This document shows, piece after piece, positions 21,343-41,075 of a DNA stretch of 64,000 bases. The stretch is taken from IMG/VR virus record IMGVR_UViG_3300035698_010959; one strand, given 5' to 3'. A program made the translations under genes and the position numbers. The notes beneath the pieces are model-generated. The model saw only the letters and a list, made by a program, of their open reading frames with translations. It was not told where the DNA came from and did not search any database. The first letter of the stretch is position 1. Each line of letters opens with the position of its first letter. Source of the stretch: a virus.

Positions 21343-24300
21343 CTAATTTTGCATAGTTAGTAGTGTTTCTGCTAAATTATTTATGTATCCTTGGTTCATT
21401 GTTTGTCTTTGATCGTTTATGTGTGTTGATTGAAATCCCTCTATTGGGCTTACTATATGTGAGTTTATTGCTTCTTGTAATGATGTAAGTATGTTAGTAG
21501 TATCTGTTGGGCCTTCAGTATTTCCTTCTATAAGTATATCTATTTTGTGATATACTGGTTTTTGTATTGATGCTGTTGTTGTATTTTTTACAGTTTCTAT
21601 GGGTTCAGATTTATTACTAATCTCTTGAAGATCTGGTCTTCGTCCTAAAACCATTAACGAGCCAGCCATCATTGCTCCTAATATAAGTGCATACTTTCCT
21701 TTAGTTAGTCTACCTGCATCTAATAATTCAGAAATACCTTCTAGTTTATTTCCTATTCGTGTAAATTTAGTAGTTGCTTGAGAGGTTACTAACTCTTGTG
21801 CTTCTGGCTTTATTATTTTATCTAGTATAGTTCTAAGTGGAGTAGATAGCTCTCTGCTTTGTGCAAGGTCTTCTAGAGCTGATCTCCCAATGTGTCCCAT
21901 CTCTTCTCCAGCGTACTTTCCTTGAGTGATTCGTGCTTTAGTAAAATCTTCTAGTGTACTTCCTTCATCAATATTAGTCCATCCTAACATATCCATAAGA
22001 GTGGATTGTTGTGGTTCTGTAAGTTTTGCAAATTTTTCTTCGCTTGTTGCTAGTCCTCCAAGGAATTTATAAGCTTTTGCTTTGCCTGCTCGTTGCGCTC
22101 TATATGGAGAAAGTGATGGATCCTGTAGTGCTTCACTTATAAATACATTTTCTGTATGAGCTATAGATTTACCCCACATAAGTCTATCTATTTGATTATC
22201 TCCTCTTGCAAACATTAGGTCTTCTGCTTCCATTGCTTTTGCAAGAATAAGTTGTGCTTCATTTTGTGTTTTTGTTTGTATATTTTTTAAGGCATTTTGT
22301 CTAATCTGTCTGCTTTGTAAATACTCATTAAAGCTTGCTGTTGTTTCTAGTGATTGTTGCTCGCTTGCATTAAGGTTTCCTTTGCTAAATCGTTGTAATC
22401 TTTCTACAAACTTTCTTCCTGTTAGATTGGAATAGTTTTCTGGATCTATCGCTTTTGCGGCCTTGGTCCTATTTGATTGATAGGCTTCCAGTATTTCATT
22501 ATCTAGCATGCTTTCTATTAAACGTTCTTCTGCGTCATTAGATAATATATCAACTTTTCTAGTTGTTAGAAATGTTTTTAGATCATCTACATCTAGCCCT
22601 CCAGGAATGCCTACCATTTCTGCAAGTATTTCATTTAGTCTTGAGGAGTCTGCTTTGTTTACAAGTTGAAGAGCTATACGTCTAATGTCAGATTGTATCA
22701 TTAGATCAGAAGCAATTCTTATTGATTGTGGATTATCTCCTAAAGCTTTTATTGTAAACGCTAATCGTCTGTCATGTGCTGGTATATTTACATCTGTAAG
22801 TTGAGCCCATGGCGCTACGCTTTCTATATCTTCATAATACTTCCGTAATACAAGATTCTTTTGCCAAGGTGCAAGTGTTTCATTTGCCACTAATTGATCA
22901 TGTATATTTGAATGTTTTGGTATCCATTCATTTTCTAGCCAGTTTTTTTCTAATCGTATTTGATCTGCTAGTCTTGGATCATTTAGTGCTGCATCTGTAA
23001 ACTTCATAGCATCTCTAACTGCCAGTGTATCTTCCGTTAGACCAGCAATATCATCTTCCATTCCTCCAAAGTAATCCATTGGATTAGGAAGTCCAGAGGC
23101 TTCTTCTAATACTCTTAATCGTTCTAATTCTTTGTAAGGAAGGTCTACTTCATACATCATCTTACGTATACGATTTCGTGCTAGATCTTCTACAGCTCCT
23201 TGTCTTAGTTGTAGTCCTTCTTCAATGTTAACTGGTTTAAATTCTCCTAATAACCTGTCTGGTAATGCATGTACTGGGCTATCAATTGGAGCCATAATTC
23301 TATTAGCTATTGGTTCTCCAGCTTCATTTAATTCTTGCATTACAACACGAACAGATCCACCTAAATCTTCAGCATCCCAACCATAAAGTTTAAATAGCCT
23401 TCTCTCTCTTATTCCCCATAAATACTGCATGTTGGATCCAGCACTTAGTTTTTTTGGAGATCCTCCTTTTGTTGTTTTAAATATATTAAAATTACCTGCT
23501 TGATCTAATACTGTGGGTTTATCTATAGATAGTTTATTAAATAAATCCATAGTTGTTCGTGCATCAAATAAGCCTATGTGTTCTTCTGTCCAAGCTGCCG
23601 ATCTTATCCCTAATTTTCTTGATAGATTCTGTAGACTGTATCCACCTGGCATTCCGCTTTTCATTATCTTGGATAGCATTAGTGTATCTACACTGCGATC
23701 AGACATTGTTTGTAAGCTTTTTATTACATTCTTTCCAAGGCCAAGATCTTTTGCTCTTTGTGTTAGCATACCTATATCAAAGCCTTTGTTATGTAATAAG
23801 AATAGAGTATCATCAGATTGTGTTACTATTTTGCTAGCCAGTTCTTCTATTAGAGCTGCTTCGTTTTGCATCAGCCTTGGAGTATATTTTTTTCCATATA
23901 ATAAAGATTCTTGTGTACCAATATCTAATACATCTTCTGTTTGTAGCATTCCTCCTACAGTTGTTCGTCGTCTTCTAACTGCACCTATGTTGTATATTTT
24001 ATTTGAAGTGTCTGTTTCTATGTCAAAAGCAAATAAATCTGCCTCTCCTAATAATGCTTTTTCAATATTAGTTAAGTGCTGTTTAAATGCTGCTGGAGAT
24101 TCTAATGAACCTATACCTCCTCCTTGTTTTAGTGCAAAAATAGGAAGAGTTTTACTTTTCTTAGATCGTGCAAGAGCGTTTGCTATAACTTGTGCTGCTG
24201 CAGGTGACCCAGGATCCATTGTTTTAACTATGTTATCTAATGATGTAAGAGGTATTTCTGTACTTAGATCTGTTAGGGATTTAATTATTCCTGTCTCTAT

Positions 24301-26703
24301 ATCAAGTAACTTAGTGTTTGACATAACTTGATACTGCCGTATTGATCCATTTGCTTCAGTAACATCTATAATTAAACCTTGAATAGCCTTACCTTCTGCT
24401 GTTCGTGTTCCTAAATTAAATATATTACTCATCTCTGGATGTAGTCCAAAGAATCTTACAACATCAGCATTAGCAACAAATTCATCTAATGGCCTTTGTG
24501 TTATAATATGTTGAAATCCGCCAGGACCTTCTTTAAGCTTTATTCCAAGATTATCTAATACGGTTTCTATTTGTATGTCTATGGTTGGTATATCTGTAAT
24601 ACCTACAGCCTTTAAGTCTCTTTCTAATAAATCCATAGCTGCTGCATTTTTGGATAAAAGATCCAAGCCTTCATCAGCAGATCCTACTGTAGGTATTTGT
24701 ATTGATGGATCATTTAGACTAATAGCATTGTTGAACGCGTCGTTTGGATCTATTGGTTTTGGATTTCTTACTGCTCTATTTATTGCGTCATTTACAATCT
24801 CTATTGGCTTTGTTGATTCTGTTGTTCCTTCTTGTAGGATATCATAGAATCTTACAACTGCATCTCCAACTGTATCTTCATCTGCCCCAACTGCTCTTGT
24901 TATTTGTGCAAGTAAGGGTTTTCCTGGGTCACTTGCAGTAGGATAAACTTGTCTAAGAATATTAGTTATATCTTCTGGAGTTCTTACTACTTGTTGTGCC
25001 TTTGCTTGTATTGTGTCACTTGCTGCTTGTATGTTTCTAAACTCTTCTTGATATTGTGGTAACACTTTTAAAGCATCTACTAGATCTTCTCTTGATGTAA
25101 ACTTAGTAGGTATTGAGTAAGGACTTGGTTGTATTATATTGGCAGGTTTTGCTATTAGTTTTTCTTTGCTTGTATTAATCCCTTCTAGATCAAATACTAC
25201 TCCGCCATGTCTTACTCTTATTGGTTTTCCAATACCATGTCCTCTTGCTATTTCTTCTTGCATATTGGTAGCAGCAAACATTCCTTTGTCTCTTGTTGTT
25301 GAGTGCTTACCCATTCGTTCTCTTGCTTTTAGAGATCTATAAAACCCTGTTTCTTCTCGTAGACTTTTACTCCAAATATCTTCTCCAAGATCTTCTTGTA
25401 TTTCATCTGCTAAAGTTTTATATCTACCATCACGTGTTTTTCCACCAGATTGTAGCTCATCTCCCCAATCCTCTAAATTATAACCACCACTTTTACTTCC
25501 ACCTATACCAGGCTTATCTGCTCCTATTGCTTCTGCTTTTAAAGTTGCCAGATTTTCTGAAATAATATCATGGTGTTTTGTGTATGTCCCTATTTCACTT
25601 TGAATTTTTGAAACTCTGCTGCCAGTTATCGTTCCGTATTTCTTAGGTATGCCTAATCGCCTTCCATCTGTAAAGGCTTCTGCTAAACTTTTAACTGCTC
25701 GTGTAACATCATCAACATTACCTATTCGCGCTAACTGAGTTAGTCTTGTTACCGCTTTAGAGTCATATTCATTTACTCGTAGTAGTGCATACTTTAATTC
25801 AGGATCCAGTAAATCTACATTGTTATGTCTTATTAACTGTAGTGCTGTATACTTTGCTCTATTTGTTAGTATACTTCCTGCTTGTTTTACTGAAGATAAT
25901 TCATTTCTAAGAGTAGATAGTCGTTTAGATACTGAACTTTTTGCTATGTTAAGTCTATCTAATTGTGTATCTACGCTTCCAAGTTTTGGTTTACTTGTTG
26001 CTGGATGTACCCAATCATCTGCTGCTGGTATTATATTAGCTGTTGTTGGTCCAAAGAATTCTGTTTTAGGAATTGTAGCTGTTTGTGAAATAGCACCTTT
26101 TGTTAGTAGGTCTGGATGTTCTTCTATTATTACTGCAAGAGTTTTAACTAACTCATCACTGTAAGAATCAGAGGCGTCTTGTAATATAACTTTTCGTATT
26201 GCTGCTTCTGGAGATGGTGATTTTGATCCTTCTATTAGTGGATTACTATTAATTAGTCCTCTAAATACACCTAATTTATGAGGTGTCATAGTTTCTAATA
26301 GTGCAGTTATTCGAGACATTTCTGCTCTATCAATTAATCCTATTTTTGTTTCATATGCTTGATCAATATATAGTCTTAGTTTGTTCCAGCCTGGTTTTAC
26401 AGATGTATCATTCCATTTAACTATTTGCTCAAGATCGGCGCTTGCATCTACTATAATCTTCTCACCAGATGCAAGTATTTGTTGTCCGCTTTCTGCTACC
26501 CCTCTTGATAGTGGAGTAAGTGTTCCAGAGACATGGTTCTTTAATACTTGGTATGTTTTTTTAATACCACTTCGTGATAGAATTACTGTTATAACAAGTA
26601 ACCATTCGCCAAGCGTACGTAAGTCTGTGACCTTACCTTCTTCAAGTGTAAGGTTGTCTCTTACTTTATCTCCTACATATATTCTATCTCTGTTTTGATC
26701 CAT
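21343..26703 (-). CDS. Giant (1786 aa) putative virion protein with internal DEDDh 3'-5' exonuclease domain
   Basis: AFDIET, HNKGFD, VDTLMLS, YSLQNL and EHIGLFDARTT at about 23530-24045. Hydrophobic ALILGAMMAGSLMVLG near the C-terminus. Helical, tape-measure-like composition. Confidence 0.75.
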   Translation of the reverse strand: MDQNRDRIYVGDKVRDNLTLEEGKVTDLRTLGEWLLVITVILSRSGIKKTYQVLKNHVSGTLTPLSRGVAESGQQILASGEKIIVDASADLEQIVKWNDTSVKPGWNKLRLYIDQAYETKIGLIDRAEMSRITALLETMTPHKLGVFRGLINSNPLIEGSKSPSPEAAIRKVILQDASDSYSDELVKTLAVIIEEHPDLLTKGAISQTATIPKTEFFGPTTANIIPAADDWVHPATSKPKLGSVDTQLDRLNIAKSSVSKRLSTLRNELSSVKQAGSILTNRAKYTALQLIRHNNVDLLDPELKYALLRVNEYDSKAVTRLTQLARIGNVDDVTRAVKSLAEAFTDGRRLGIPKKYGTITGSRVSKIQSEIGTYTKHHDIISENLATLKAEAIGADKPGIGGSKSGGYNLEDWGDELQSGGKTRDGRYKTLADEIQEDLGEDIWSKSLREETGFYRSLKARERMGKHSTTRDKGMFAATNMQEEIARGHGIGKPIRVRHGGVVFDLEGINTSKEKLIAKPANIIQPSPYSIPTKFTSREDLVDALKVLPQYQEEFRNIQAASDTIQAKAQQVVRTPEDITNILRQVYPTASDPGKPLLAQITRAVGADEDTVGDAVVRFYDILQEGTTESTKPIEIVNDAINRAVRNPKPIDPNDAFNNAISLNDPSIQIPTVGSADEGLDLLSKNAAAMDLLERDLKAVGITDIPTIDIQIETVLDNLGIKLKEGPGGFQHIITQRPLDEFVANADVVRFFGLHPEMSNIFNLGTRTAEGKAIQGLIIDVTEANGSIRQYQVMSNTKLLDIETGIIKSLTDLSTEIPLTSLDNIVKTMDPGSPAAAQVIANALARSKKSKTLPIFALKQGGGIGSLESPAAFKQHLTNIEKALLGEADLFAFDIETDTSNKIYNIGAVRRRRTTVGGMLQTEDVLDIGTQESLLYGKKYTPRLMQNEAALIEELASKIVTQSDDTLFLLHNKGFDIGMLTQRAKDLGLGKNVIKSLQTMSDRSVDTLMLSKIMKSGMPGGYSLQNLSRKLGIRSAAWTEEHIGLFDARTTMDLFNKLSIDKPTVLDQAGNFNIFKTTKGGSPKKLSAGSNMQYLWGIRERRLFKLYGWDAEDLGGSVRVVMQELNEAGEPIANRIMAPIDSPVHALPDRLLGEFKPVNIEEGLQLRQGAVEDLARNRIRKMMYEVDLPYKELERLRVLEEASGLPNPMDYFGGMEDDIAGLTEDTLAVRDAMKFTDAALNDPRLADQIRLEKNWLENEWIPKHSNIHDQLVANETLAPWQKNLVLRKYYEDIESVAPWAQLTDVNIPAHDRRLAFTIKALGDNPQSIRIASDLMIQSDIRRIALQLVNKADSSRLNEILAEMVGIPGGLDVDDLKTFLTTRKVDILSNDAEERLIESMLDNEILEAYQSNRTKAAKAIDPENYSNLTGRKFVERLQRFSKGNLNASEQQSLETTASFNEYLQSRQIRQNALKNIQTKTQNEAQLILAKAMEAEDLMFARGDNQIDRLMWGKSIAHTENVFISEALQDPSLSPYRAQRAGKAKAYKFLGGLATSEEKFAKLTEPQQSTLMDMLGWTNIDEGSTLEDFTKARITQGKYAGEEMGHIGRSALEDLAQSRELSTPLRTILDKIIKPEAQELVTSQATTKFTRIGNKLEGISELLDAGRLTKGKYALILGAMMAGSLMVLGRRPDLQEISNKSEPIETVKNTTTASIQKPVYHKIDILIEGNTEGPTDTTNILTSLQEAINSHIVSPIEGFQSTHINDQRQTMNQGYINNLAETLLTMQN

Positions 26704-26717
26704 AATTATAAATATAA

Positions 26718-26751
26718 CCGTCTGGAAGAAAAGGCTATTCCTCCCAGACGG
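26718..26751 (-). terminator. Terminator-like hairpin immediately upstream of the 1786-aa gene
   Basis: Minus strand CCGTCTGGGAGGAA-TAGCCT-TTTCTTCCAGACGG (14 bp including G-U) then TTATATTT. A T-rich tail also follows on the plus strand. Confidence 0.65.
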
Positions 26752-26780
26752 CCTTTGTTTTTATATTTTACTATTTAATT

Positions 26781-26936
26781 CTATCCAGCACAGGGTGACC
26801 ATGCACAATTGCTACAATACATGCATCCGCTTTCTGGTTTCATTATTCCTTTAGAGCATATTGGACAAATATTCTCTGCTTTTGTTTTTGCTGTTGCTGT
26901 TGGTTGTTGTGGTTTTGTTTCCGTTGTTTTTGGCAC
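26781..26936 (-). CDS. 51-aa Zn-ribbon mini-protein resembling the C-terminal Cys domain of class II RNR (NrdJ)
   Basis: Not in the ORF track. GTG start with AAGGA upstream; ends ICPICSKGIMKPESGCMYCSNCAWSPCAG. Confidence 0.65.
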   Translation of the reverse strand: MPKTTETKPQQPTATAKTKAENICPICSKGIMKPESGCMYCSNCAWSPCAG

Positions 26937-27028
26937 AGTAGGTTGGTCCTTTCATATAGTTGACTCCATTCTATCTGTACTACATGTGTAATGTTTGTTA
27001 TGTTATATAAGAGAGTGTATTATCTTCC

Positions 27029-27274
27029 TCAGGCAAATGGAAGATTAAGCTGTACTATTGGTTGTTTGTTGTTGTTGTGTGTTTTAGATGAACAAGCTGG
27101 ACACACATAAATGTCAAAGTTTGATTGTGCTTTAGTAGTGTAATCATCTGTATACTTTTGCATTTCTTTATAGCATCTTGGACAATACATATACTCTGGC
27201 TCAACTGGAGGTATATTTTGGTTACTGTCCTCTTTTTCTTTTTTTGAATAGAAGTACCAGTAGTTGTCATACAA
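27029..27274 (-). CDS. Zn-ribbon protein
   Basis: CPRC ... CPAC pairs. Confidence 0.55.
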   Translation of the reverse strand: MYDNYWYFYSKKEKEDSNQNIPPVEPEYMYCPRCYKEMQKYTDDYTTKAQSNFDIYVCPACSSKTHNNNKQPIVQLNLPFA

Positions 27275-27287
27275 TATAGTATGTATT

Positions 27288-28278: not shown

Positions 28279-28585
28279 TGATGTCCTCCTCAACTGTTTC
28301 AATACGTTCAACATTTGTTATTAATTCTTGTTTAAATTGTGATAAACCATATTCATCTTTTCCAATTTCTTTTACTGCTATATATCCTTCTTTTTCAGGA
28401 ATAAACCCTAAGCCCGCAAAGCCTATGTTATCTTGTATTGATTGAGAGAATCCAGTAATAACAATATCTCCTTCATATGGATCTGTATCTATGTTTGTTA
28501 ATTTAAAAAGAGCATATAGTATAGAACCATGTCCGGTTGTTAGTTTATATTTAACGGTATCACCTATATTTTTTGGAGGTTTTAT
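28262..28585 (-). CDS. Hypothetical protein (107 aa) with probable ATA start
   Basis: Open frame fills the gap below the amidase and has no ATG/GTG/TTG. AGGAG-N8-ATA overlaps the amidase stop. Confidence 0.6.
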   Translation of the reverse strand: MKPPKNIGDTVKYKLTTGHGSILYALFKLTNIDTDPYEGDIVITGFSQSIQDNIGFAGLGFIPEKEGYIAVKEIGKDEYGLSQFKQELITNVERIETVEEDIIEYKT

Positions 28586-29157
28586 TGTAAATACTCCTGT
28601 ATATATTTGTGTACTCCATTACATATTGCTTTAGCAATCAGGTTTCTTTTTTTAGTAGTAGTTAAAACTTCTCTATCATTTATGTTTGAGATAAAACCTA
28701 CTTCTGTTAGTATACATGATTTACATCTGTTGGCTAAAGCATTACGTAACATATAAAATCCCCAAATAGGATATCTAGACTTGTCTCCTTTGACTCCTCT
28801 TTTGGTAAAGAAATCTAAAGCATCTACTGATCTACAAACATATTGTGATAATACTTTACTAGCTTCAACTCCAGACCTATACCAGATTTCTGAACCATTG
28901 GCTGATTTGTTTACTGATCCATTAGAGTGTAATGATATTAGTATATCTCCATGTTTTGCAATGGAGCTTCTATAGGAATTAGATAGTGTTTTATCTGTAT
29001 CTCGTGTGAATACTGTTGTATATCCTAATTCTCTAAAAAAATGTCCTAACATTTTAGCACAAGCTAAAACTATATCTTTTTCTTTTGATCCTCCAGCACA
29101 TGCTCCTGGATTGCTATTTCCTCCGTGACCAGGATCAATTACAATTCTTGGTTTCAT
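28582..29157 (-). CDS. N-acetylmuramoyl-L-alanine amidase (Amidase_3), candidate endolysin
   Basis: IVIDPGHGG, KEKD, ISLHSN and LTEVGFISN Zn/catalytic motifs; no cell-wall-binding domain. Confidence 0.92.
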   Translation of the reverse strand: MKPRIVIDPGHGGNSNPGACAGGSKEKDIVLACAKMLGHFFRELGYTTVFTRDTDKTLSNSYRSSIAKHGDILISLHSNGSVNKSANGSEIWYRSGVEASKVLSQYVCRSVDALDFFTKRGVKGDKSRYPIWGFYMLRNALANRCKSCILTEVGFISNINDREVLTTTKKRNLIAKAICNGVHKYIQEYLQ

Positions 29158-29178
29158 TTGTTGTAGTTACTCCAGTAA

Positions 29179-29733
29179 TTAATCTTTCTTTTCTGTAATT
29201 GGCATAAACCCAGTTTCTTTTTGTTTTGGTAAGCATTTTCCAGTCCATAATTCATGCGCTATTCCATATGATATTATCTTTTCTGAAGATAAAAAGCTTT
29301 CTTCTTTTAGCAAAGAGTTCCATTTTTTTCTTTCTAAGTTAGTACGACTTACATAAAAATCTACAATAGAGGATGTTACTCTTTTATGGTCTATTTTTTC
29401 TTTATCTACTTCTATTAGGTTTAATGTATCTCCTCCATAATACCAACTTATACCGTGTAATAACATGTATGCATGTTTTGATATATATCTCTTATTTGCG
29501 GCCATATATATAGTAGTAGCAGCACTTGATACCTGTCCAAGACCAATAGAGGTTGTATTATCATAACATGAAATTACATCTGTAAGAGCTAAAGCGGGAT
29601 ATAGCTGTCCTCCTTCACTATTTATAAATATAGTAACTGGAGCATTTTTTGGATGGCGTATAAGTGTATCTATTATAGGAGATATTTTTTCTAAAGTTAT
29701 TTCTCCAAATATTGTAAGTACTAAGTTGTCCAC
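29179..29733 (-). CDS. clpP: ClpP-family protease
   Basis: INSEGG, GLGQVSSAA (catalytic Ser), KRYISKHAYMLLH (His), FLSSEKIISYGIA. Confidence 0.85.
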   Translation of the reverse strand: MDNLVLTIFGEITLEKISPIIDTLIRHPKNAPVTIFINSEGGQLYPALALTDVISCYDNTTSIGLGQVSSAATTIYMAANKRYISKHAYMLLHGISWYYGGDTLNLIEVDKEKIDHKRVTSSIVDFYVSRTNLERKKWNSLLKEESFLSSEKIISYGIAHELWTGKCLPKQKETGFMPITEKKD

Positions 29734-30937: not shown

Positions 30938-30939
30938 AG

Positions 30940-32205: not shown

Positions 32206-32209
32206 GTAT

Positions 32210-35200
32210 TTATCCATATAAATTTAAAGTTTCTGCGATTTCTTTCATTCTATTTTGTCTTACATTCATTGCTATATTTATGTTGTCTGATGAGGCATTG
32301 GCATCTGGAACTGAGTTTACCCTAATTCGTAGATTTTTTATACCATTTCCTGATAGTAAATTGTTTAAAGTTTTTTGAATATGTGAAGATGAACCATGTA
32401 CTGTTGGTAGTTGTACTTCATTTGTATTATGTTCTGCTTCAACTACAACCTGTGGATAGAAACCATAGTCAAGAGGGTCTGTATGTTCTTGTACTGTAGT
32501 TCTTGCTTTAAGTTGTTCTAAGTCTACTTCTGGTGACCATCCTTTCCAGGATTCACCTGGAAGTGTGTGTACTTTAAAGTAATCACCGAGTAGTTTTCTT
32601 TTTGGTATATCTTCTTCTTCAATACCAAGGTGTATTCCAAGTAGCCTTTGTTCGTAATCTGGGAGAAGTCTATAGGCTTTTTTTCTTTCTTCTGGTGTTG
32701 ATCCTGTTATCAATCCATTTATTATTTCTCGTTCATACTTTGGGAGTGCTCTAAATATATTCATGTATGGTCCGCCAGGATCGGCTCCATACATTGTTGA
32801 TCTATATTTTTGTTGATATAATACTGCTTGTGTTGCTAGTGGTCCAAGTGCTACTGTCTCGGATCTACTTTGTAGTTCTTGTATTTCTGCTCTGATAGCC
32901 AACTCTTCTTTTGATCCACGTTCATTAGCTAATAGGTGTTTTCTTCTTTTATCCTCTAGCTCTCTAATCTTTTCTTTTCTCCACTGTCCAAGATTACGAG
33001 CCCGATCATCTATTTCTTCTACGTCTGTTCCTTCTTCATCATTAGCTAGTTTAGCAGTTGCTTCATATAGTCTTCTATATTTTATATACTCTAAGGTATC
33101 ATAATATTCTTCTACATCTCTTCTCTTTTGTGTTCTATTTGGTATCCAAGGCTCTCCTGTTAGTGCTTCTTGTCCTTGTCGAAGTATTGAAAGTCCAGCT
33201 CCTATTGCTGCTCCAGCAAGCGCTGCTTTGCCTCTCATCTTTTTTGTTCTCATAAATAGAGAGGAAAATACTCCCGCTCCTACTGCTGCGCCTATTGCTC
33301 CTTTAGCTACATATGACTGTATTGTTGGTTCAATGTAAGAACTATAAGCAGACTCCCAGCGTCCATATTTTTTTCCATAAACTTGACTTCTTACATATTC
33401 TTCATAAGGAGATCTGATTTTAAGAAATTTTGAATTGAGCATTGTATCAGCATGAGATATTGTCTCATAGCGTGCTCCAGCAGTTATTTCTTTTTCAGTA
33501 AATCGAGCATATATACCAGCAGCAGACCATTCTTCTTTTTCTATTCCAACTCCAGTTTGTATTAGATCAGCATTAATGTTTCTATTGTGTGCCATGACAA
33601 CAGCATGCTGTGTTCCAAGTACATCGTCAGCATATCTATCTTCTGGATCTTTATTTACTAAAGCTGTTACTTTTGTACCTTTGCGAATACCGTACTGACG
33701 ATATAATACTTCAGCTGGAGATAGGTTTTCATTTTCTCCATACTCATCTGTAATTCTTTGATTAGAAGCCCTTACTCCAGCAAGACGCAGTGGATGTTCA
33801 GATTCTCTAACCTGTAGTGTATTGGCATCCATTATGTTACTGACTGTATATGTCTGTTCTTCTACATTTGCGTTTTTAAATCTATATGGAAATAAATCAA
33901 GCCGTTTCTTTTGTGCTCCAGCTCTTTTCTTAGCAGCCTGAAATCTATCTCTTTGATCTTCTGTTAGTTGGTCATCATGTGGTAGATATCCCTTTAGTTG
34001 TTTATATTCCTGTGAATATGGCGAATTATGTGTTGCATACCCTAATACACAAAAAGAATTATCGTCCTCTATTGTCCAGTTATATACCTCTCCAGAGTAG
34101 GGCTGCTTTTCTGTTTTTATTACTTTACTTACTAAATAGTTACCATCTATCCATGCTTGTCGCCTTCTATTTTCAGGCCGTACATAGCTTGGAGCTTTTC
34201 CAGTTACCCATGTAACAAAGTCATATGCTACAGTACCAAACATCCTAACTCTATAAATTTGTCGTCTATCTTGTTTAGGAAAGTATGACTTTCTTGTGGT
34301 AAATTGGACACTTGCTACAAATCCGTTTTGTAGAAGCATATCTCTAATGCCTAAAGCAAGTTTAAGGCTAATAGTAGTCATTTCGGCTTGTAGTTGATGC
34401 CCAGTTTTACAATCATTGTGTTTGGATGCACATAAACAACCATCACCTGCAAAGTAACTAGATAGTAATTGACGTTGGAGTTCCGAATCTAGATTAAAAG
34501 CCCATTGTGGTAATTGTTTTGTTGCGGAACGTTGTCCAAATATATTACAAAATAATTTTCCTATTGTTTGATTAGTTACACATACATACCTTGAATTACT
34601 TTCTGGTTTTGTAAATATTTTTGGAGTAGTTTCACAAATATCTGCAAAGTAATCTTTTAGAAAATTTGCTGTTTCTATCTCATTTATGTTAAGGCTAAAT
34701 ATTAAACCTTTTGGTTGATGAGTTTTAGTTGATCTACCATTAGATGAGCCTTCTGCAAGATATACGCCAGCTGCTTTAGCAAATCTAGCATCTACTAGAA
34801 GTTGGGATATACAAAATGTATTACATCCTTGTCGTTTGGGATGTAGCCAAGTATCTTCACGTAGTGTATAACTATCTGGTAATATATCTTTAATATTTAA
34901 GAAATTAGGTGGTGTTTCTTTTTTAGGAATTGGATACAATACTACATCATTGGACCTAATATCTCCTAATGCAACCCAGTCTGCTGTATCTATAGGATAG
35001 CAATATCTATTAAATTCGTTTTCATCAGATATAATATTATCATTGTTGGCGTTATATTGTGGTATATTTTTAGCATTGCTTGGGGCTTTAATTGTGTAAA
35101 TCGGATGTTCTGGAGTTGCTAATAATGGGTGTGCTGGTATGAATGCAACATTTAGTTTTATGAGATGTGGACTATAGTGGCGTATAGCACAACGAGTGAC

Positions 35201-38200
35201 AGCTTTAGAATCTCCTTTATGGGAAATAACTCTATCACCAACTTTAACATCTTTTGCTAGTTTTACTGAGCCATCTGATGTGCGTATATACGTAAGTGGA
35301 TGTACACACGTATCTGCCAGGATCTCAAATCTTGTTGTCATATCATATAGATCTGCTCTTGATACCTCGCCGGAGTCAATCATTTCTCTAACTTTTGATC
35401 GTGCTTCTTCTACTTTCTGGAATAGATTAGATACTCTTCTTTTTGAATATCCTACATGTTCTATTCTTGTTTGTTCTGGATTGTCTCTATTCATATAGAA
35501 TAGCAATCCTCTGTGTATTCCAGATTCATTCATGTAGAAGTTTAACTGATCTAAGTGACTTGCGAATATTTCTCCAGAATTAAATCTTTTATCTGACATA
35601 GATTTAATTTCTGTTACATATTTTTTACCATCTAAGTTTAATAACGCATCCATATGTCCAGAGATACCTAACTCTGGATTATAAAGTTCTACTTCTTCAT
35701 CTTCTAATATACCAAGTTTTTTCCATTTGTTTTGGTATTTTTTGTGTATTTGAGTTCCTTCATCCATTATGTTTTCCATATAAGCAGAGTTGGCTTCTTT
35801 TATGTTTACCATTTCTGCTACTAACTCATTTACACTTTTACCAAGAGAGGATGCTCGTGTTCTCATTAAAGGCATATTATGTATGCGTTCATATGCACTT
35901 CCAGGTAGTCTTACTTCCCCCGCCGCTCGTAATTTTGTATACATGTCTCCTGTTTGGAAATTCGTGAAATAATTAGACCCAGGTAGCCATGTTTCTTCAA
36001 AAGCGTTTGGTACTGTATTGTATTCCTCTACCTGTCTAAATCTGTGAGGCATAAATCTTCTACCTATCTCGGAGTTATGTACAATCATACCAATTGTACA
36101 GAAACTTGGATCTCCATCCATAGTAAAGTCATATACTAATCCTTCATAAGCTGTTGGATAGTTTTCTTTTACTTTGAAATAGATAAAATTAGCGTCTCTC
36201 CAGGAAAGCCCTTCATTGTTTGAGTTATCTGGTTGATAATTACCAAAATGTAATAAGCCTAATTGATCTCTTAAATTTCTTGCGTCATTTCCATTTAAAG
36301 TTACACAAAATTGTGGCTTTGTTTTATATCTTTTTTTTGTAATGTCATTAATAAAGAATCTTCGTTTTCTATTTTTTATAGATAAACTTGGAGTATATCC
36401 TAACATTATTAAGATATTAAATATTTGTAACGCCAGTTTATATGCTACAATAGATATTCGTAGATCTGTTTTATTTGTTCTATCAGACCTACAATGCCCA
36501 TCTCCACGAAATAGTCCTTCTAATATTCCTAATAAAAATTCTTTTGGTGTATTTAATAGTTCTGAAGGAATACGTTTATCATTCTTTGCTCCAAAGGCAG
36601 CAAATATGAATTCGGCAAGAACTCTATTACATACCCTTGTATACCAGTATCCTTCTTTTGTTGTTGCTGCTGTAGTATTTAATCCTAAAGAGTTTGCAAA
36701 ATCTTTACAGAATGTGGCATAAGATTCTTCATCTCTATCATAGGCAAAATGAATTTCATAAAGTCTTCCTTTATCTCTATTACCAAAACTTCCCTCTGCT
36801 AACCATAGTCCTAAAAACTTTCCTAAGTCTTTTGTTAATAGTAGTTCTTTTGGAAAGGATACTGCTGCGTTTTTACAATTATCAAAGGCAAATCTGTTAT
36901 CAAAATCTGTTATAGAAGATAGTCCTATAGTAGTTACTATATTTAATTTAGTTAGTATATTACTTTGTTTGGGTATTGGATATGCTATATAATCTCCTTT
37001 CTTTATGTATTTTGCTGCTATCCATTCTGGAGTATAGTGTTGATGATAGTTAAATTCACAGGATTGGAATTTATTACAGTGTGGAATACAAGATGAATTC
37101 TTTTTTCTTCCATCTTTATGTTCACAATATTCTGTACTTATTGCGAATACTGGATGTTCACTTGTGGCACTAAGAGGAAATCCACCACAGTATGTTTCTA
37201 TACAGCGTATGTCTTCATTAATATGTCGGCTATGTACTGCTAATACTTCTTGTGGTATTCCATATCTGGATAGTAGTGTGGTTCCAGTTGTAATATCTTT
37301 TACTTCTATTGGTGTACCAAAGTCTTGTTGTAGTAACATATTTGGAGTAAGACAAAGAAAACCTCCTAATCCTCCAAGCTCCGCTTCCCAGTATTTACGT
37401 TCATAACTGTATGCTCTTGAAGCATCAGCCATTACTGTTCCAGTTCTATCTCCAAGAGGAATACCTGCCATCCATCCATAGAGTCCCATCATTTCTCGCG
37501 TTAGATAACTACCTAATTCTGCGTTACCTATGTAATCAACATCTTCTAGTTGTTCTGCTGTAAATGCTTTTTCTTGTCCATAGATATCTTGTAGGCGTGC
37601 TGGTATATTAGATGAACCTTGTGATTTAAGTTCTCTATTTATTTTTTCAAGTTGTTTACGTATTACACGCCTTGCTCCACCTATTGTTCTTTTACTCCAT
37701 GGATCTGACATACCTGGTGGAAGTTCAGATAGTGCTACTTGTCCTGCTGAGGTTAGAGTAGCAAGAGAACCTTCAGTCAATATCATTGGACTAGCAGAGT
37801 AGTCTGCTAGGGTTTCACTTCCTTTTCCACCTCTAATTGGTTGGTTCCATTTTCCTCCACCTGCTTTTGCTTCATGCTTAGTAGCTTCATTTAGTGCTCT
37901 TAATTGTTTTTTAGATTGTGTTTCTTCTAAGTTTTCTGGCAGATAATCTGGGTGTAATACTCTTCTCGGTTTTATTATCTTTCCTATTGTTGCGTTTAGT
38001 ATTGGACCCCATAGTGTTTCACGAGTAAAAGGCTCACCCGAAAAAATGTATGGCCGATCTGGATTTGGGCCTACAGAATGTTTGTGCTCAAAAGCGTACG
38101 GATCTAATAGCCTATTGATAGTACTGAGTGGGTATCGAGGTGTAGGGATAGCAGATCGACTCCAATAATCTTTATTGTTATAATCTACATTCTCAGCGCC

Positions 38201-41020
38201 TTGCCATTCGGAGTTTGCCAGTTGGTAAGGATCTGGCATAAAGTAAGATACTCTATCTCCATAAAATGCCGATCTTGAGCCAAATAACCAGAACCTTCCT
38301 TTTCGTATAGGAACATAGCCACTATCTAATTGCTTTGCCATGTCTGCTTTGTTTAATCCAGACATGTAGTATTTAGATCCTGGATGTAGTTCTGCGAATT
38401 TTTCCCAATCGTTAAGACCAGCCCACTGTAGTTTAAGGTTGGCTCTTATGTTTGCTATGCCCTCTTCTGGCCGTGCTCCTATTAAGTTTTCACTTTCATA
38501 GTTTATATATTTCCATGCTTCAACTGCTGCTACACCAGGTAGTATTCGTTGAACAACTAATCCACGTATTATGTCTGCTCCACTTCCAAGGTTCTCTGGA
38601 TTTAATCCTAATCCAAATGGAGTTAGTGCTTCATTTAATCGTGTAGCAAAGAAGTAAGGTTTTAGACTGGTTCGTGTTATACTTCCAGAATCTGCACCTT
38701 GTACAAATGTACTTGCGTATTGTTTTGTAAAATCTGATCCAGCAAATTGCTTTATCATGTCCTGGAATGATCCACCAGATTTGGTAATATCATTAAGTGT
38801 TTTAATTAGTCCAGCATGTTGTTTTACTAATAGGCGTTGTGGGCCTTCATATACTTGAGGAGGAGTATGTATATCAAGAAGACCTAAGAAGTTATTCATT
38901 ACATATTCTGAGGTTTCTTTTATTGAGGATGACTCTACTTTTTTAGTTAATAGATCTCTGGCTGCCTCTGCTCCTTGTACTTCTAATACGCTTCTTATTT
39001 GAGAACCATAGACTGCTGCTTTTGCTAATTCTAATTCTTGTTCTTCTAAGCCAAATCTTGCTTGTGTAAGTTTTGTTATAAGAGGCGTAGTTATACCTAA
39101 CTCTGTTGGATTTGCATATCGTATGGCATATTCATCTATGAGAGCTTCTCTCATCAGGTCTATGCCGTGTTTAGATTCTGGAGCACCAAGAAGCCTATCC
39201 ATAAGCGGTGATTTGCTTGTTACTCTTTGTGTTCTATCAAGAACTTCATTTGGACTTACACTAAAGTCCTCTAATAATATTGATAGTTTTTTAGAAGAAG
39301 CCTTTAGGCCATATGACCTATTCTGTTGGAAGAATTTTACTATATCAGCATCATTCTCTATGTTCTGTAAAACACTCGCAACCTCTGGAGCATTAGGAAA
39401 CATTCCTGTTTGAAGTGTTTTTCTTACATTCTGTGGAGATATTTTTCCTACTTTTTGTAAGAGAGTAGCTACTGTTCTTATGTCTTTTTCCATTGTAGCA
39501 GCAGGCGCTGTTGGATTCTTATATATTCGTTCTAGTGCTCCTGCTGGATAGCTTTTAGCTATTCTTGCTAGTTCTGAGTTTTCTGGAAACTTAGAAGGAT
39601 CCGCAAACTTAGTAAAGATAGATCTTGCTTGTCTAAATACAGAGTCTGTTGGTTGTCTTCCTGTAGAAAAGAAATTTTGTAACTTCTCTATAATTGTATT
39701 TCCACCTGTACCAAATCCAGCTAGATCTAATAATTTTCCTGATCCACTTCGAGTAATTCTATCTTTTTTTGCTGCTTTACTGGCTAATAGGTTACGCATT
39801 AAATGCTCACCAAGGCCATAGTCAGCATGTAGTGCGGTTATATTGTCTACAGCATCTGATATTACATTATCTATAGCTAGTGAGTCACCAAAGCGCATTC
39901 CAACAGCAGTATTACCTACTAAAGATATGTCTTGGTTTCCTGAGAATAGTCCTTTTATTAGTGCTTGTTTACCAAGAGTGTTACTTTTTATAAGAGTATG
40001 TCCAAGTTTAACTTCACCTGTTAACCAAGGAAATAATCTAAATGGGCTGAATCCTCCAACAAAAGGTATAAGTGGTATTTCTACGTTTTCATTTAACCAA
40101 CTTATACCTTTTCCTATTAACTTAGATGCTCCTCTAAGATCTGTTACTTGTTTTCCATTAACTGTCCATAGTTCTCCAAGAACTGCTTTGTTTATTACAT
40201 CTGTATCAGCTTGTTTTCCTAGAGTGTGTGCTAAGGTTTTACTTGTTTTTTCTGCTTGCTCTATAACTTCGGCTGTAAAATTAGCTCTATTAGTTAAAAC
40301 ATTACCTACTGTAACGCGCTTAGCACCAAATACTTTTTCTGCTATTGCGTCTGTCCAACTACTATGTTGCCCTAAAGCAATGTTTGTATATTTTTCTGAA
40401 GATGCTGTTCTTTTTGTTAGAGCACGTGCTAGTAGTCTTTGATGTTCTTCTTTTGCTCTTGCTACTTGAGCTTGTAATGAAGATGCTCTTGGATCAGTTG
40501 GAAGTCCAAATGAGTTGTCAAATAGATGATCATTTGAAAGTCTTTTTCTAGCCGCTAGAAGATCTGCGGATATTTCATCTACACCTTTTCCTGTGCCTTC
40601 AAATGATGATCTAAGCCCAGAATAGGTATCATCCATCAGGTTTTTTGGAAGAGGATCACCAGGAGATATCCATGTTTTTATTCTACTATATGGAGCAACT
40701 CCACCCTCATATCCAAATAGATTATCTACTTGTGGGTTAACCCAACCAGCATCTCCAAGATATCCTCGTAATCGTTGTTCTCCTACTTGCATTCGTGCTC
40801 TACTTGGTATTGTTTCATTTATAGCACGACCTACATCATCTGCAAAACGTGTTAGAGCAAACCTTGCTTCTGTTCTTTCTGCTGTTGCTAGACGAGCAGC
40901 TATAGTCTCTGCACCACGTAGTGCAAAGGCTGCTATTTTCTTTCTACCAAGTATTGCAGCAGTAGCTGCACCTACTCCAAGTATTTTCCATCTTGTATTT
41001 TGGTTTTCGTATGTATTCAT
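32210..41020 (-). CDS. Tape-measure-like giant protein with two inteins, a PD-(D/E)XK nuclease domain and an SNase-like domain
   Basis: Follows the tube and chaperone genes; helical with Gly/Ala hydrophobic segments. Nuclease motifs GTQIH, SGHMD, TEIKS, QLNFY. SNase-like VSNIMDANTL...LRLAGV. Spliced length 2081 aa. Confidence 0.8.
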   Translation of the reverse strand: MNTYENQNTRWKILGVGAATAAILGRKKIAAFALRGAETIAARLATAERTEARFALTRFADDVGRAINETIPSRARMQVGEQRLRGYLGDAGWVNPQVDNLFGYEGGVAPYSRIKTWISPGDPLPKNLMDDTYSGLRSSFEGTGKGVDEISADLLAARKRLSNDHLFDNSFGLPTDPRASSLQAQVARAKEEHQRLLARALTKRTASSEKYTNIALGQHSSWTDAIAEKVFGAKRVTVGNVLTNRANFTAEVIEQAEKTSKTLAHTLGKQADTDVINKAVLGELWTVNGKQVTDLRGASKLIGKGISWLNENVEIPLIPFVGGFSPFRLFPWLTGEVKLGHTLIKSNTLGKQALIKGLFSGNQDISLVGNTAVGMRFGDSLAIDNVISDAVDNITALHADYGLGEHLMRNLLASKAAKKDRITRSGSGKLLDLAGFGTGGNTIIEKLQNFFSTGRQPTDSVFRQARSIFTKFADPSKFPENSELARIAKSYPAGALERIYKNPTAPAATMEKDIRTVATLLQKVGKISPQNVRKTLQTGMFPNAPEVASVLQNIENDADIVKFFQQNRSYGLKASSKKLSILLEDFSVSPNEVLDRTQRVTSKSPLMDRLLGAPESKHGIDLMREALIDEYAIRYANPTELGITTPLITKLTQARFGLEEQELELAKAAVYGSQIRSVLEVQGAEAARDLLTKKVESSSIKETSEYVMNNFLGLLDIHTPPQVYEGPQRLLVKQHAGLIKTLNDITKSGGSFQDMIKQFAGSDFTKQYASTFVQGADSGSITRTSLKPYFFATRLNEALTPFGLGLNPENLGSGADIIRGLVVQRILPGVAAVEAWKYINYESENLIGARPEEGIANIRANLKLQWAGLNDWEKFAELHPGSKYYMSGLNKADMAKQLDSGYVPIRKGRFWLFGSRSAFYGDRVSYFMPDPYQLANSEWQGAENVDYNNKDYWSRSAIPTPRYPLSTINRLLDPYAFEHKHSVGPNPDRPYIFSGEPFTRETLWGPILNATIGKIIKPRRVLHPDYLPENLEETQSKKQLRALNEATKHEAKAGGGKWNQPIRGGKGSETLADYSASPMILTEGSLATLTSAGQVALSELPPGMSDPWSKRTIGGARRVIRKQLEKINRELKSQGSSNIPARLQDIYGQEKAFTAEQLEDVDYIGNAELGSYLTREMMGLYGWMAGIPLGDRTGTVMADASRAYSYERKYWEAELGGLGGFLCLTPNMLLQQDFGTPIEVKDITTGTTLLSRYGIPQEVLAVHSRHINEDIRCIETYCGGFPLSATSEHPVFAISTEYCEHKDGRKKNSSCIPHCNKFQSCEFNYHQHYTPEWIAAKYIKKGDYIAYPIPKQSNILTKLNIVTTIGLSSITDFDNRFAFDNCKNAAVSFPKELLLTKDLGKFLGLWLAEGSFGNRDKGRLYEIHFAYDRDEESYATFCKDFANSLGLNTTAATTKEGYWYTRVCNRVLAEFIFAAFGAKNDKRIPSELLNTPKEFLLGILEGLFRGDGHCRSDRTNKTDLRISIVAYKLALQIFNILIMLGYTPSLSIKNRKRRFFINDITKKRYKTKPQFCVTLNGNDARNLRDQLGLLHFGNYQPDNSNNEGLSWRDANFIYFKVKENYPTAYEGLVYDFTMDGDPSFCTIGMIVHNSEIGRRFMPHRFRQVEEYNTVPNAFEETWLPGSNYFTNFQTGDMYTKLRAAGEVRLPGSAYERIHNMPLMRTRASSLGKSVNELVAEMVNIKEANSAYMENIMDEGTQIHKKYQNKWKKLGILEDEEVELYNPELGISGHMDALLNLDGKKYVTEIKSMSDKRFNSGEIFASHLDQLNFYMNESGIHRGLLFYMNRDNPEQTRIEHVGYSKRRVSNLFQKVEEARSKVREMIDSGEVSRADLYDMTTRFEILADTCVHPLTYIRTSDGSVKLAKDVKVGDRVISHKGDSKAVTRCAIRHYSPHLIKLNVAFIPAHPLLATPEHPIYTIKAPSNAKNIPQYNANNDNIISDENEFNRYCYPIDTADWVALGDIRSNDVVLYPIPKKETPPNFLNIKDILPDSYTLREDTWLHPKRQGCNTFCISQLLVDARFAKAAGVYLAEGSSNGRSTKTHQPKGLIFSLNINEIETANFLKDYFADICETTPKIFTKPESNSRYVCVTNQTIGKLFCNIFGQRSATKQLPQWAFNLDSELQRQLLSSYFAGDGCLCASKHNDCKTGHQLQAEMTTISLKLALGIRDMLLQNGFVASVQFTTRKSYFPKQDRRQIYRVRMFGTVAYDFVTWVTGKAPSYVRPENRRRQAWIDGNYLVSKVIKTEKQPYSGEVYNWTIEDDNSFCVLGYATHNSPYSQEYKQLKGYLPHDDQLTEDQRDRFQAAKKRAGAQKKRLDLFPYRFKNANVEEQTYTVSNIMDANTLQVRESEHPLRLAGVRASNQRITDEYGENENLSPAEVLYRQYGIRKGTKVTALVNKDPEDRYADDVLGTQHAVVMAHNRNINADLIQTGVGIEKEEWSAAGIYARFTEKEITAGARYETISHADTMLNSKFLKIRSPYEEYVRSQVYGKKYGRWESAYSSYIEPTIQSYVAKGAIGAAVGAGVFSSLFMRTKKMRGKAALAGAAIGAGLSILRQGQEALTGEPWIPNRTQKRRDVEEYYDTLEYIKYRRLYEATAKLANDEEGTDVEEIDDRARNLGQWRKEKIRELEDKRRKHLLANERGSKEELAIRAEIQELQSRSETVALGPLATQAVLYQQKYRSTMYGADPGGPYMNIFRALPKYEREIINGLITGSTPEERKKAYRLLPDYEQRLLGIHLGIEEEDIPKRKLLGDYFKVHTLPGESWKGWSPEVDLEQLKARTTVQEHTDPLDYGFYPQVVVEAEHNTNEVQLPTVHGSSSHIQKTLNNLLSGNGIKNLRIRVNSVPDANASSDNINIAMNVRQNRMKEIAETLNLYG
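34025..35308 (-). mobile_element. Intein 2 (428 aa) with LAGLIDADG endonuclease in the tape-measure-like gene
   Basis: ILADT/CVHPLTYI; LLATPEHP; AGVYLAEG; LSSYFAGDG; VYNWTIEDDNSF....ATHN/SPYS. Confidence 0.93.
36074..37354 (-). mobile_element. Intein 1 (427 aa) with LAGLIDADG endonuclease in the tape-measure-like gene
   Basis: GGLGGFL/CLTPNMLL; LSATSEHP; LGLWLAEG; LEGLFRGDG; VYDFTM....SF....IVHN/SEIGRR. Confidence 0.93.
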
Positions 41021-41035
41021 ATAAGGTGTAGAAGT

Positions 41036-41075
41036 AAAAAAGGAACCCTCTATCTTTTAAAGCTGAAGGTTCCTT
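41036..41075 (-). terminator. Intrinsic terminator-like hairpin before the tape-measure-like gene
   Basis: Minus strand AAGGAACCTTC-N14-GAGGGTTCCTT followed by TTTT; overlaps the chaperone stop codon. Confidence 0.7.

Follow-up and report, generated by a model that had tools for sequence, protein, structure and literature searches.

The present analysis concerns a 64-kb window, that is, the whole stretch of 64,000 nucleotides under study, from the virus record IMGVR_UViG_3300035698_010959, and in particular two giant open reading frames (ORFs) in its tail module, coding for proteins of 2936 amino acids (aa; P0001) and 1786 aa (P0002). By sequence comparison, the window belongs to a jumbo myophage from metagenomic data, a relative of Bacillus phage 0305phi8-36, and P0001 and P0002 are identified as orthologues of the 0305phi8-36 proteins gp145 and gp146 (hereafter, gp145-type and gp146-type proteins). 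An initial annotation had proposed that these proteins carried three nuclease folds and would bring endo- and exonuclease activity into the host cell at injection. Both ORFs were found exactly as annotated (Table 1), and each is predicted to harbor one exonuclease domain with a complete catalytic set. The two domains, expected to work in opposite directions, are under strong purifying selection, and the genes of the giant proteins that contain them lie in the interval from the tail-assembly chaperones to the baseplate hub.

The assignment of the 2936-aa gene to the tape-measure slot was also confirmed, as it immediately follows the two-gene chaperone pair and is located upstream of the hub; the 1786-aa ORF lies further downstream than this slot, yet upstream of the hub, which closes a block of three giant genes.

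Table 1. Features of the two giant genes and of their surroundings (numbering of the 64-kb window).
Feature	Position	Strand	Details
2936-aa ORF (P0001)	32210-41020	(-)	ORF list, translation
N-extein, residues 1-1222	37355..41020	(-)	N-terminal hydrophobic helix and conserved region
Intein 1, 427 aa	36074..37354	(-)	Cys1...His-Asn, Ser+1; Pfam Intein_splicing, LAGLIDADG_3; site between GGLGGxL and SEIGRRF
Middle extein, 255 aa	35309..36073	(-)	Core motif SEIGRRF...GDPY...RLPGxAYE...RFEILAD carrying the nuclease insert
PD-(D/E)XK domain, unspliced residues ~1718-1887	35360..35869	(-)	GTxxH, GHMD, EIK, QLNFY
Intein 2, 428 aa	34025..35308	(-)	Pfam Hint_2, LAGLIDADG_3; site between RFEILADT and SP
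SNase-fold (OB) domain, residues ~2379-2512	33485..33886	(-)	Degenerate active site
Two Gly/Ala-rich hydrophobic helices, two-transmembrane (2-TM) glycine zipper	33173..33301	(-)	Sequence
1786-aa ORF (P0002)	21343-26703	(-)	ORF list, translation
DEDDh (DnaQ/RNase T/ExoI-like) domain, residues ~885-1070	23494..24051	(-)	D894, E896, D976, H1042, D1047
C-terminal module of the gp146 family	21346..21753	(-)	Transmembrane helix (~1669-1687), linker, beta-alpha unit, (D/N)xRxxxxxxY(I/L)D
Portal	61211-62947	(-)	
Major capsid protein	56027-57205	(-)	
Sheath paralogue	47390-48865	(-)	
Sheath	44826-46547	(-)	
Two tube-like paralogues	44079-44813, 43244-43921	(-)	
Tail-assembly chaperone pair (230 aa and 207 aa)	41050..42375	(-)	Repeated domain in common; directly upstream of P0001
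Six small genes between the two giant genes			Include ClpP-like protease and Amidase_3 endolysin
Family A DNA polymerase (built-in 3'-5' exonuclease domain, one intein)	17969-21280	(-)	Between P0002 and the hub
251-aa ORF			Between the family A DNA polymerase and the hub
Baseplate hub, 2367 aa, orthologue of 0305phi8-36 gp147	10077-17180	(-)	phrog_20474, 5e-159
Baseplate_J	5026-6135		Beyond the hub, downstream

Architecture of the 2936-aa gp145-type protein

The protein is interrupted by two inteins, and its spliced length without them is 2081 aa. The homologue encoded by the nearest metagenomic relative (P0005, 2031 aa; genome G001, IMG/VR UViG_3300029288_004596, 217 kb) is intein-free and contiguous through both GGLGGxL-SEIGRRF and RFEILADT-SP; since it is unbroken across the two junctions, the inteins were placed at residues 1223-1649 and 1905-2332. 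Both display Cys1, a terminal His-Asn, a Ser at position +1 and LAGLIDADG (boundaries C1223...N1649 and C1905...N2332, each followed by Ser), and are paralogues of one another (25% identity over their full length, E 3e-31). After splicing, the domain order is an N-terminal hydrophobic helix, the core motif, the PD-(D/E)XK insert, an oligonucleotide/oligosaccharide-binding (OB) domain of staphylococcal nuclease (SNase) fold, the two-helix glycine zipper and a helical C-terminus. Residues 3-1221 of the N-extein share 39% identity with the intein-free G001 homologue; this region matched no Pfam or PHROG family, and residues 700-1240 of P0005 retrieved no usable match from the ESM Atlas.

The core motif is the best-conserved part of the gp145-type protein, of which 40 homologues (~1930-2180 aa) were found in the protein database. 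Its profile hidden Markov model (HMM) matches 80/80 IMG/VR loci, and it was modeled by AlphaFold2 (AF2) at low confidence, with a predicted local distance difference test score (pLDDT) of 35-66. Inteins or large insertions occur in the gp145 family at no fewer than five sites, that is, at least at ~930-950, 1175, ~1225, 1440 and ~1630-1650 in P0005 numbering; several of them are within or beside the core motif (SEIGRRF...RLPGEAYE...FEILADVAP), which suggests that this motif is functionally critical. In Bacillus phage vB_BauM_KLEB27-3, the gp145 homologue (L010, 13619-20772) is annotated as gp031 and gp033, with the small gp032 between them; this break falls inside the core motif, where the same hot spot has possibly received an intron or the insertion of a homing endonuclease.

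The Gly/Ala hydrophobic helices that had been described near the C-termini of both giant proteins are present in their sequences. In the gp145-type protein they form the glycine zipper, a region with a weak match to Pfam Gly-zipper_Omp, and NCBI gives one homologue the name 'glycine zipper 2TM domain-containing protein'. The reported resemblance between the extreme C-termini of the two proteins was not upheld, as the HMM of the gp146-type C-terminus misses gp145-type proteins and the two gave an hhalign probability of 0.2%.

A PD-(D/E)XK nuclease inserted in the core motif

The PD-(D/E)XK domain proposed for the 2936-aa protein was borne out by PHROG, AF2, Foldseek and VIA, and it models as a nuclease fold. 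Profile matches were obtained to phrog_1706 (Cas4-like, 2e-21), phrog_2506 and phrog_1990, i.e., to Cas4-/RecB-like exonucleases. In the AF2 model of P0005 residues 1180-1720 (32 aligned sequences, mean pLDDT 79.5), pLDDT exceeds 90 in both globular domains, namely the PD-(D/E)XK and SNase-fold domains. With this model, Foldseek retrieved LHK-Exo (1.5e-6) and, more weakly, Cas4 SSO0001, lambda exonuclease and MGME1, while VIA gave Z scores of 14.7 for Cas4 4ic1 (root-mean-square deviation, rmsd, 2.7 Å over 148 residues), 14.2 for LHK-Exo and 14.1 for lambda exonuclease. Sequence searches of the PDB with the PD-(D/E)XK, SNase-fold and DEDDh domains returned nothing significant; only fold comparison succeeded.

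The catalytic Asp of motif II, the (D/E)xK of motif III and the QxxxY of motif IV are all present in the window domain. Among the 20 carriers in the protein set (window clade), the motifs G(T/N)xxH, GxSGHxDA, (E/D)xK and QxNxY are kept in 19 and degenerate in one, and they are retained in most of the 23 domain matches from IMG/VR. In 11 Firmicute-type members the domain is missing, and RLPGEAYE passes nearly straight into FKILADVAPWS; thus, the nuclease constitutes an insertion in a loop of the core motif. The gp145 of 0305phi8-36 does have the domain according to its HMM (GTKIH, GGFFD, DIK and QQLNFY, with a 67-aa insert), and it was not found in the gp145-type proteins of phages vB_BceM_WH1, KLEB27-3 and Moorella phage MTATph1.

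The domain therefore shares its fold (Z 13-15) and the motifs D, (D/E)xK and QxxxY with lambda exonuclease, LHK-Exo, Cas4 and MGME1, but differs from these enzymes in being inserted in a 2000-aa structural protein instead of free-standing, and in lacking the four iron-sulfur (Fe-S) cysteines of Cas4. There are zero cysteines in the middle extein (residues 1650-1904) and none in the aligned columns of the family, so the domain is not Cas4 sensu stricto.

A SNase-fold domain with a degenerate active site

Regarding the SNase-like domain, the fold claimed in the initial annotation was recovered by Foldseek (~1e-4, template-modeling score ~0.6) and VIA (Z 10-11, rmsd 2.8 Å over 108/129 residues), whereas its nuclease active site was not, since the catalytic residues are replaced. 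In a motif-anchored alignment (IDGDT to MDANT; RLLLVDTPE to RLAGVRASN), as opposed to a structure superposition, D21, D40 and E43 of staphylococcal nuclease correspond to N, R and N in the window, at positions that vary across the family; from the set D21, D40, E43, R35 and R87, the window retains R35 alone. The only columns conserved in the family are RLAG, one Asp and an N..L..G helix, and no match of the domain to Pfam SNase was obtained. The OB-type fold, the Arg35 equivalent and the N..L..G helix are shared with staphylococcal nuclease and with the non-catalytic SNase-like (SN) domains of Tudor-SN; in contrast to staphylococcal nuclease, and as in the non-catalytic SN domains, the Ca2+ ligands and the general base are replaced. 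Judging from these residues, the domain is probably a non-catalytic OB module serving for binding.

The SNase fold bears on the idea that the domains work outside the cell: exposed at the tip of the contracted tail, they would aid penetration by cutting DNA in the surroundings or wall polymers with phosphodiester links. SNase is typically an extracellular enzyme, and the hub of BtI1, a relative of 0305phi8-36, carries a SNase domain at the tail-lysozyme position that Hardies et al. left unexplained (PMC2147016). Nevertheless, the SNase-fold domain of the window is without catalytic residues, members of the PD-(D/E)XK and DEDDh families act on DNA ends in the cytoplasm, and the domains occupy central parts of proteins that have membrane helices, and not a tip; we thus regard an extracellular role as exceedingly improbable.

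The 1786-aa gp146-type protein and its DEDDh exonuclease

The 1786-aa protein contains an intact DEDDh exonuclease domain, as had been noticed from its translation: the five catalytic residues are invariant, and VIA and Foldseek identify an RNase H-like exonuclease fold. A word-index search with P0002 found a single relative, P0004 of G001 (25% identity), and an exhaustive profile search extended the family to 26 representatives, mostly of 1750-2430 aa. Iterated HMM searches and two independent alignments indicated that D894 and E896 (ExoI, D-x-E), D976 (ExoII), and H1042 and D1047 (ExoIII, H-x4-D) are invariant in 23/23 sequences with a mean identity of ~20%, and likewise in the IMG/VR loci. 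The isolated domain matches Pfam RNase_T (PF00929) at 24.0 bits, with a cut-off of 24, and the whole-protein scan gave no match.

The AF2 model of P0002 residues 841-1786 (mean pLDDT 75.4) reaches ~90 in the DEDDh domain. Foldseek aligned this domain with ExoI and RNase T at 3-5e-4 (3e-4 to 2e-3 overall for ExoI, RNase T and TREX), and VIA with the DnaQ domain 8h18 (Z 16.1, rmsd 3.3 Å, 153 residues) and with the exonuclease domains of B-family polymerases (Z ~15). A family B polymerase behind the domain, considered in view of the high rank of polymerase chains among the structural matches, was rejected, as only the exonuclease domain aligns (template-modeling score ~0.15 overall), ExoIII is of the h- and not the y-type, and no polymerase motifs are conserved. 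Compared with DnaQ, RNase T, Exonuclease I and TREX, the window domain agrees in fold (Z 14-16) and keeps the complete set of five catalytic residues, but it is embedded in a 1786-aa membrane-anchored protein and has an extra invariant Asp, D1006.

Following the DEDDh domain, the model continues with a small domain of beta structure and a region of well-packed helices; then come a stretch modeled at low confidence, with one transmembrane helix, and the terminal module. Besides the catalytic set, D1006 and a DLAxxRxR motif located after the exonuclease domain are invariant, and a short N-terminal motif, GDxVRDxxTxxxGRV (residues 1-45 of the window protein), is common to the gp146-type family.

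Considering all three domains, the conservation of catalytic residues across homologues holds for PD-(D/E)XK and DEDDh and fails for the SNase-like domain. Therefore, the three nuclease folds that had been claimed do exist, but only two look active, leaving two candidate enzymes instead of three. Similarly, from the proposed combination of endo- and exonuclease, the relationships found support exonuclease families (lambda-Exo/Cas4 and DnaQ), with no pointer to an endonuclease.

These active sites also bear on whether the folds serve merely as grips. In such a scenario, they would hold the 5' and 3' termini of the leading genome end in the tail or neck, and the expelled giant proteins would drag the DNA in and shield its end, with catalysis being secondary or limited to a one-off release. 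Virion proteins that protect DNA ends are known, such as T4 gp2 and Mu N. Exonuclease active sites are made for binding a single terminus, the neighboring SNase-fold OB domain devoid of catalytic residues suits a binding module, and the glycine zipper and transmembrane helices suit proteins that enter or line a membrane channel. On the other hand, the full catalytic sets are strictly kept, down to the His that serves DEDDh as general base and the (D/E)xK lysine, which points to chemistry rather than mere binding, and the PD-(D/E)XK domain is wholly absent from many family members. We consider this alternative decidedly unlikely.

Relationship with phage 0305phi8-36 and presence in virions

No close phage relatives were detected among 50,697 phage records, either by megablast with 23 kb of the window or by tblastn with P0002, and the kinship to 0305phi8-36 surfaced only via the hub and the intein-free gp145-type homologue. 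Searches with the hub and the gp145-type protein led to 0305phi8-36 (219 kb), Edson, WH1, KLEB27-3 and MTATph1; in tblastn, the window hub matches ORF147 of 0305phi8-36 and its relatives (a weak SLT match was also seen), and P0005 matches ORF145 at 1e-117. The window and 0305phi8-36 have in common the order portal, capsid, two sheath paralogues, two tube paralogues, chaperone pair, gp145-type, gp146-type and hub, and in the latter phage the sequence of genes is sheath, tube, tube paralogue, gp142, chaperonins gp143/gp144, gp145, gp146 and hub gp147. The two-gene chaperonin gp143/gp144 has the same arrangement as the window pair (PMC2147016), whose ORFs match one another by BLASTP (1e-7 and 2e-5). 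The gene order of G001 is the same as that of the window. Within the protein database, the 2936-aa protein was assigned to a 226-kb contig. The 'Moraphages' (PMC12619734) were ruled out as relatives, being a separate T4-like lineage.

The gp145 of 0305phi8-36 (1930 aa) is a virion structural protein, and gp146 (2537 aa) is annotated as 'hypothetical tape measure protein'; tape-measure function was assigned to gp146 in the genome report (PMC2147016). Their status as virion components is taken from the GenBank record, which states for both 'identified as virion protein by mass spectrometry'. Neither the GenBank records of the related phages nor PMC2147016 gives a nuclease annotation for gp145- or gp146-type proteins.

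Orthology of the gp146-type proteins was recovered at the level of domains. The exonuclease HMM matched CDS0027 of the Moorella phage (118 bits, residues 825-1081), WH1 gp095 (residues 83-390) and KLEB27-3 gp034 (24-26 bits), and the HMM of the last ~135 residues of P0002 matched the extreme C-termini of WH1 gp095 (29 bits), KLEB27-3 gp034 (28 bits) and 0305phi8-36 gp146 (14-16 bits). The latter result agrees with the literature, in which the alignment of orf146 with its BtI1 counterpart was described as confined to the final 60 residues (PMC2147016). Whole-protein hhalign comparison of P0002 and P0004 with gp146-type proteins was uninformative (probability 7%), in contrast to the domain-level HMMs. 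At the structural level, the top BFVD matches of P0002 were A0A7R7G2L5 and A7KUS0 (886 and 1016 columns, 6e-11 and 3e-8). These entries are probably WH1 gp095 and 0305phi8-36 gp146.

In summary of these comparisons, 0305phi8-36, WH1, KLEB27-3, Edson and MTATph1 share with the window proteins the core motif, the SNase-fold domain, the glycine zipper and the C-terminal modules; the DEDDh domain is present in the gp146-type proteins of WH1, KLEB27-3 and the Moorella phage, and PD-(D/E)XK in 0305phi8-36 gp145. Differences also exist: the window gp145-type protein contains two inteins, the window clade has six small genes and a DNA polymerase intercalated, and DEDDh is N-terminal in WH1 and KLEB27-3 and central in the window protein. 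Among the Bacillus phages themselves, the position of the exonuclease-like domain shifts, from residues 83-390 in WH1 gp095 to 1206-1474 in 0305phi8-36 gp146.

Genes surrounding the two giant genes

The family A DNA polymerase located after P0002 matches Pfam DNA_pol_A (1.5e-78), DNA_pol_A_exo1 (6e-18), Intein_splicing and LAGLIDADG_3. A polymerase of this family is found inside the tail module in the window and G001 alike, the G001 copy (L001:15432-17399) being intein-free. The LAGLIDADG intein of the window polymerase adjoins a polymerase motif, which reads DMSQIEVR in the intein-free copy, and brings the inteins in the window to three. Between the giant genes, the ClpP-like protease (184 aa, PF00574, 1e-16) and the Amidase_3 endolysin (191 aa, 1e-38) lie at 28582-29733 (-), splitting a giant-gene block that is a contiguous structural unit in the Bacillus relatives. 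Amid the baseplate genes, a group-1 glycosyltransferase of 386 aa with a C-terminal SEC-C zinc motif is encoded at 7493-8653 (-). No tRNA genes were found in the window, which has a G+C content of ~35% and carries all its genes on the minus strand.

This neighborhood raises the alternative that the 1786-aa protein, and perhaps the PD-(D/E)XK domain too, is not delivered and serves intracellular replication, recombination or packaging, presence in virions being incidental or peculiar to Bacillus phages. Thus, P0002 is immediately upstream of the polymerase in the window and in G001, non-structural genes part it from the gp145-type gene, and replication and recombination are the classic settings of DEDDh and lambda-Exo-type nucleases. 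Conversely, the polymerase has a proofreading domain of its own, P0002 has in common with the virion protein gp146 a membrane helix and the C-terminal module, the exonuclease always occurs within an ORF of 1800-3600 aa by the tail genes, and the Bacillus phages have no polymerase nearby. On balance, an exclusively intracellular role appears very unlikely.

Distribution of the nuclease domains in the lineage

A pattern scan of IMG/VR identified 166 contigs encoding the gp145-type core. Domain counts were obtained for the best 80 of these loci, with DEDDh being sought in the 10-kb flanks: the SNase-fold domain was present in 55, the PD-(D/E)XK insert in 21 and a flanking DEDDh domain in 16. When near-complete records were considered, DEDDh was found in 21/26, as a single match in 20 and as two adjacent pieces within one ORF in the remaining one. 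Every match is embedded in an open frame of 1836-3588 aa, none being free-standing among these records. From this sampling of genomes, nearly the whole lineage seems to have the DEDDh domain.

Such distribution is relevant to a role in counter-defence or host takeover, in which the ejected exonucleases would spare the phage genome and, on entry, degrade nucleic acids belonging to the host or to competitors, for instance linear or nicked host DNA, resident plasmids, prophages, or the DNA or RNA parts of defense systems. The patchy, clade-specific PD-(D/E)XK insert resembles an accessory arms-race trait, and injected multi-domain 'polyvalent' proteins have been proposed to bear effectors including DNases for this very end (PMC5512222; PMC7824862). 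Against this, the near-universal DEDDh is more like a core function, both folds are end-dependent while an intact circular chromosome has no ends, no endonuclease partner was seen, and Pfam gave no polyvalent-protein signature domain. Counter-defence or host takeover is unlikely in our judgment, although it keeps an appreciable chance.

Proposed function of the exonuclease system

There is, in our estimation, an even chance that both giant proteins ride in the tail lumen or ejection apparatus, are expelled together with the genome and process DNA ends as it enters the cell. Under this proposal, the gp145- and gp146-type proteins would leave the virion alongside the DNA, placing a 5'->3' exonuclease of the lambda-Exo/Cas4 type and a 3'->5' exonuclease of the DnaQ type where the genome enters, ahead of phage gene expression. 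The favored substrate would be the non-permuted, terminally repeated ends of the phage's own genome, whose resection or trimming may let the repeats anneal, or conceal the ends from host RecBCD/AddAB. The 0305phi8-36 genome is indeed non-permuted, with a terminal repeat of 6.479 kb (PMC3357382), and by our own rough estimate of volumes, trimers of both proteins, if elongated, could be accommodated in a 486-nm tube whose lumen is ~4 nm wide. The domain identities, catalytic-residue conservation, orthology and lineage-wide conservation come directly from the analyses above and virion residence from the 0305phi8-36 record; the tail-lumen site, ejection, enzymatic activity, polarity and substrate are what we infer.

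Several observations weigh against this proposal. First, 0305phi8-36, the phage from which virion residence is taken, is poorly matched with respect to DEDDh: the exonuclease HMM hits its gp146 weakly (19 bits, the region noted above), with ExoI and ExoII visible and no clear ExoIII, and its genome gave no DEDDh match at E<=0.001. With its large insertions and the lack of an obvious ExoIII, the gp146 copy of that phage may be inactive. Second, the homology underlying the virion assignment for the window clade amounts to 25-35% identity, and mass spectrometry as recorded in GenBank speaks of presence in virions, not of location or ejection. Third, the intercalated genes (six small ones between the giants, including the ClpP-like protease and the amidase endolysin, and the DNA polymerase after P0002) mean that the block is not purely structural. 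Fourth, AF2 predicts P0002 841-1786 as a compact multidomain fold, unlike an extended tape measure, which would need unfolding to pass through the tube. Finally, by its occurrence in the sequences compared, the PD-(D/E)XK insert is patchy and so an accessory to the basic role of the gp145-type protein; its absence from WH1, KLEB27-3, MTATph1 and the 11 database proteins indicates that it is dispensable for that role.

Taken as a whole, the reading of these proteins as a virion-delivered exonuclease system of two polarities acting on DNA ends before phage transcription, either trimming the phage's own terminal repeats (for genome closure or concatenation and for escape from RecBCD/AddAB) or destroying host or defense nucleic acids, and constituting a new, lineage-wide class of cargo, is put forward tentatively, as a plausible proposal that falls somewhat short of an even chance.

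Comparison with known systems and significance

The enzymes known as virion cargo comprise hydrolases of the cell wall and RNA polymerases, together with a few proteins that counter restriction or ADP-ribosylate their targets. Peptidoglycan-hydrolase domains occur in tape-measure and ejection proteins such as T5 pb2 and T7 gp16. For the tape measure of mycobacteriophage TM4, a peptidoglycan-hydrolase domain is mentioned, by way of citation, in PMC12619734. These hydrolase tape measures resemble the window proteins in having enzyme domains within tail-lumen or ejection proteins and hydrophobic helices near the C-terminus, but they cut the cell wall on entry, while the window folds act on nucleic acid. 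A closer parallel in this respect is gp96 of Thermus phage P23-45, a tape measure with an N-terminal virion RNA polymerase that is delivered into the host (10.1101/2022.12.01.518664); as is proposed for the window proteins, a nucleic-acid enzyme is built into a giant tape measure and travels through the tail ahead of phage gene expression. The two systems have no sequence relationship and differ in that the gp96 enzyme is an RNA polymerase, experimentally active and virion-borne, whereas those of the window are predicted exonucleases of a contractile-tailed jumbo phage.

Polyvalent proteins, likewise giant and multi-domain, with nucleic-acid enzymes and predicted co-delivery with the invading DNA, constitute another group for comparison. 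The DNases reported for them are ParB-like only, without other DNase domains alongside (PMC5512222), and that article does not mention tape measures, SNase or 0305phi8-36, with 'exonuclease' appearing in its reference list alone. None of the polyvalent signature domains (MPTase, LPD families, MuF and others) was found by Pfam in the window proteins; the Moorella homologue displayed a weak LPD30 match (E 0.13). Full-text literature searches on tape measures with nucleases and on the related phages retrieved no account of the domains described here; Hardies et al. mentioned just the SNase domain of the BtI1 hub. In current annotations, the label of gp145-type proteins is either 'structural protein' or 'hypothetical protein' and that of gp146 is 'tape measure', an enzymatic domain being noted for neither. 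Thus, the principle of enzyme-bearing tape-measure or ejection proteins is known, and exonuclease would be a new type of cargo.

Enzymes carried in the virion govern the first seconds of infection. Since 0305phi8-36 and its Bacillus relatives are cultivable, and cultivable Moorella phages also belong to the lineage, the prediction is open to bench test. If it holds true, exonucleases of both polarities in a widespread lineage of jumbo phages would constitute a new class of cargo, and both the way in which the ends of a large linear phage genome are handled or hidden on entry and the roles of the unexplained giant virion proteins of jumbo phages would become testable.

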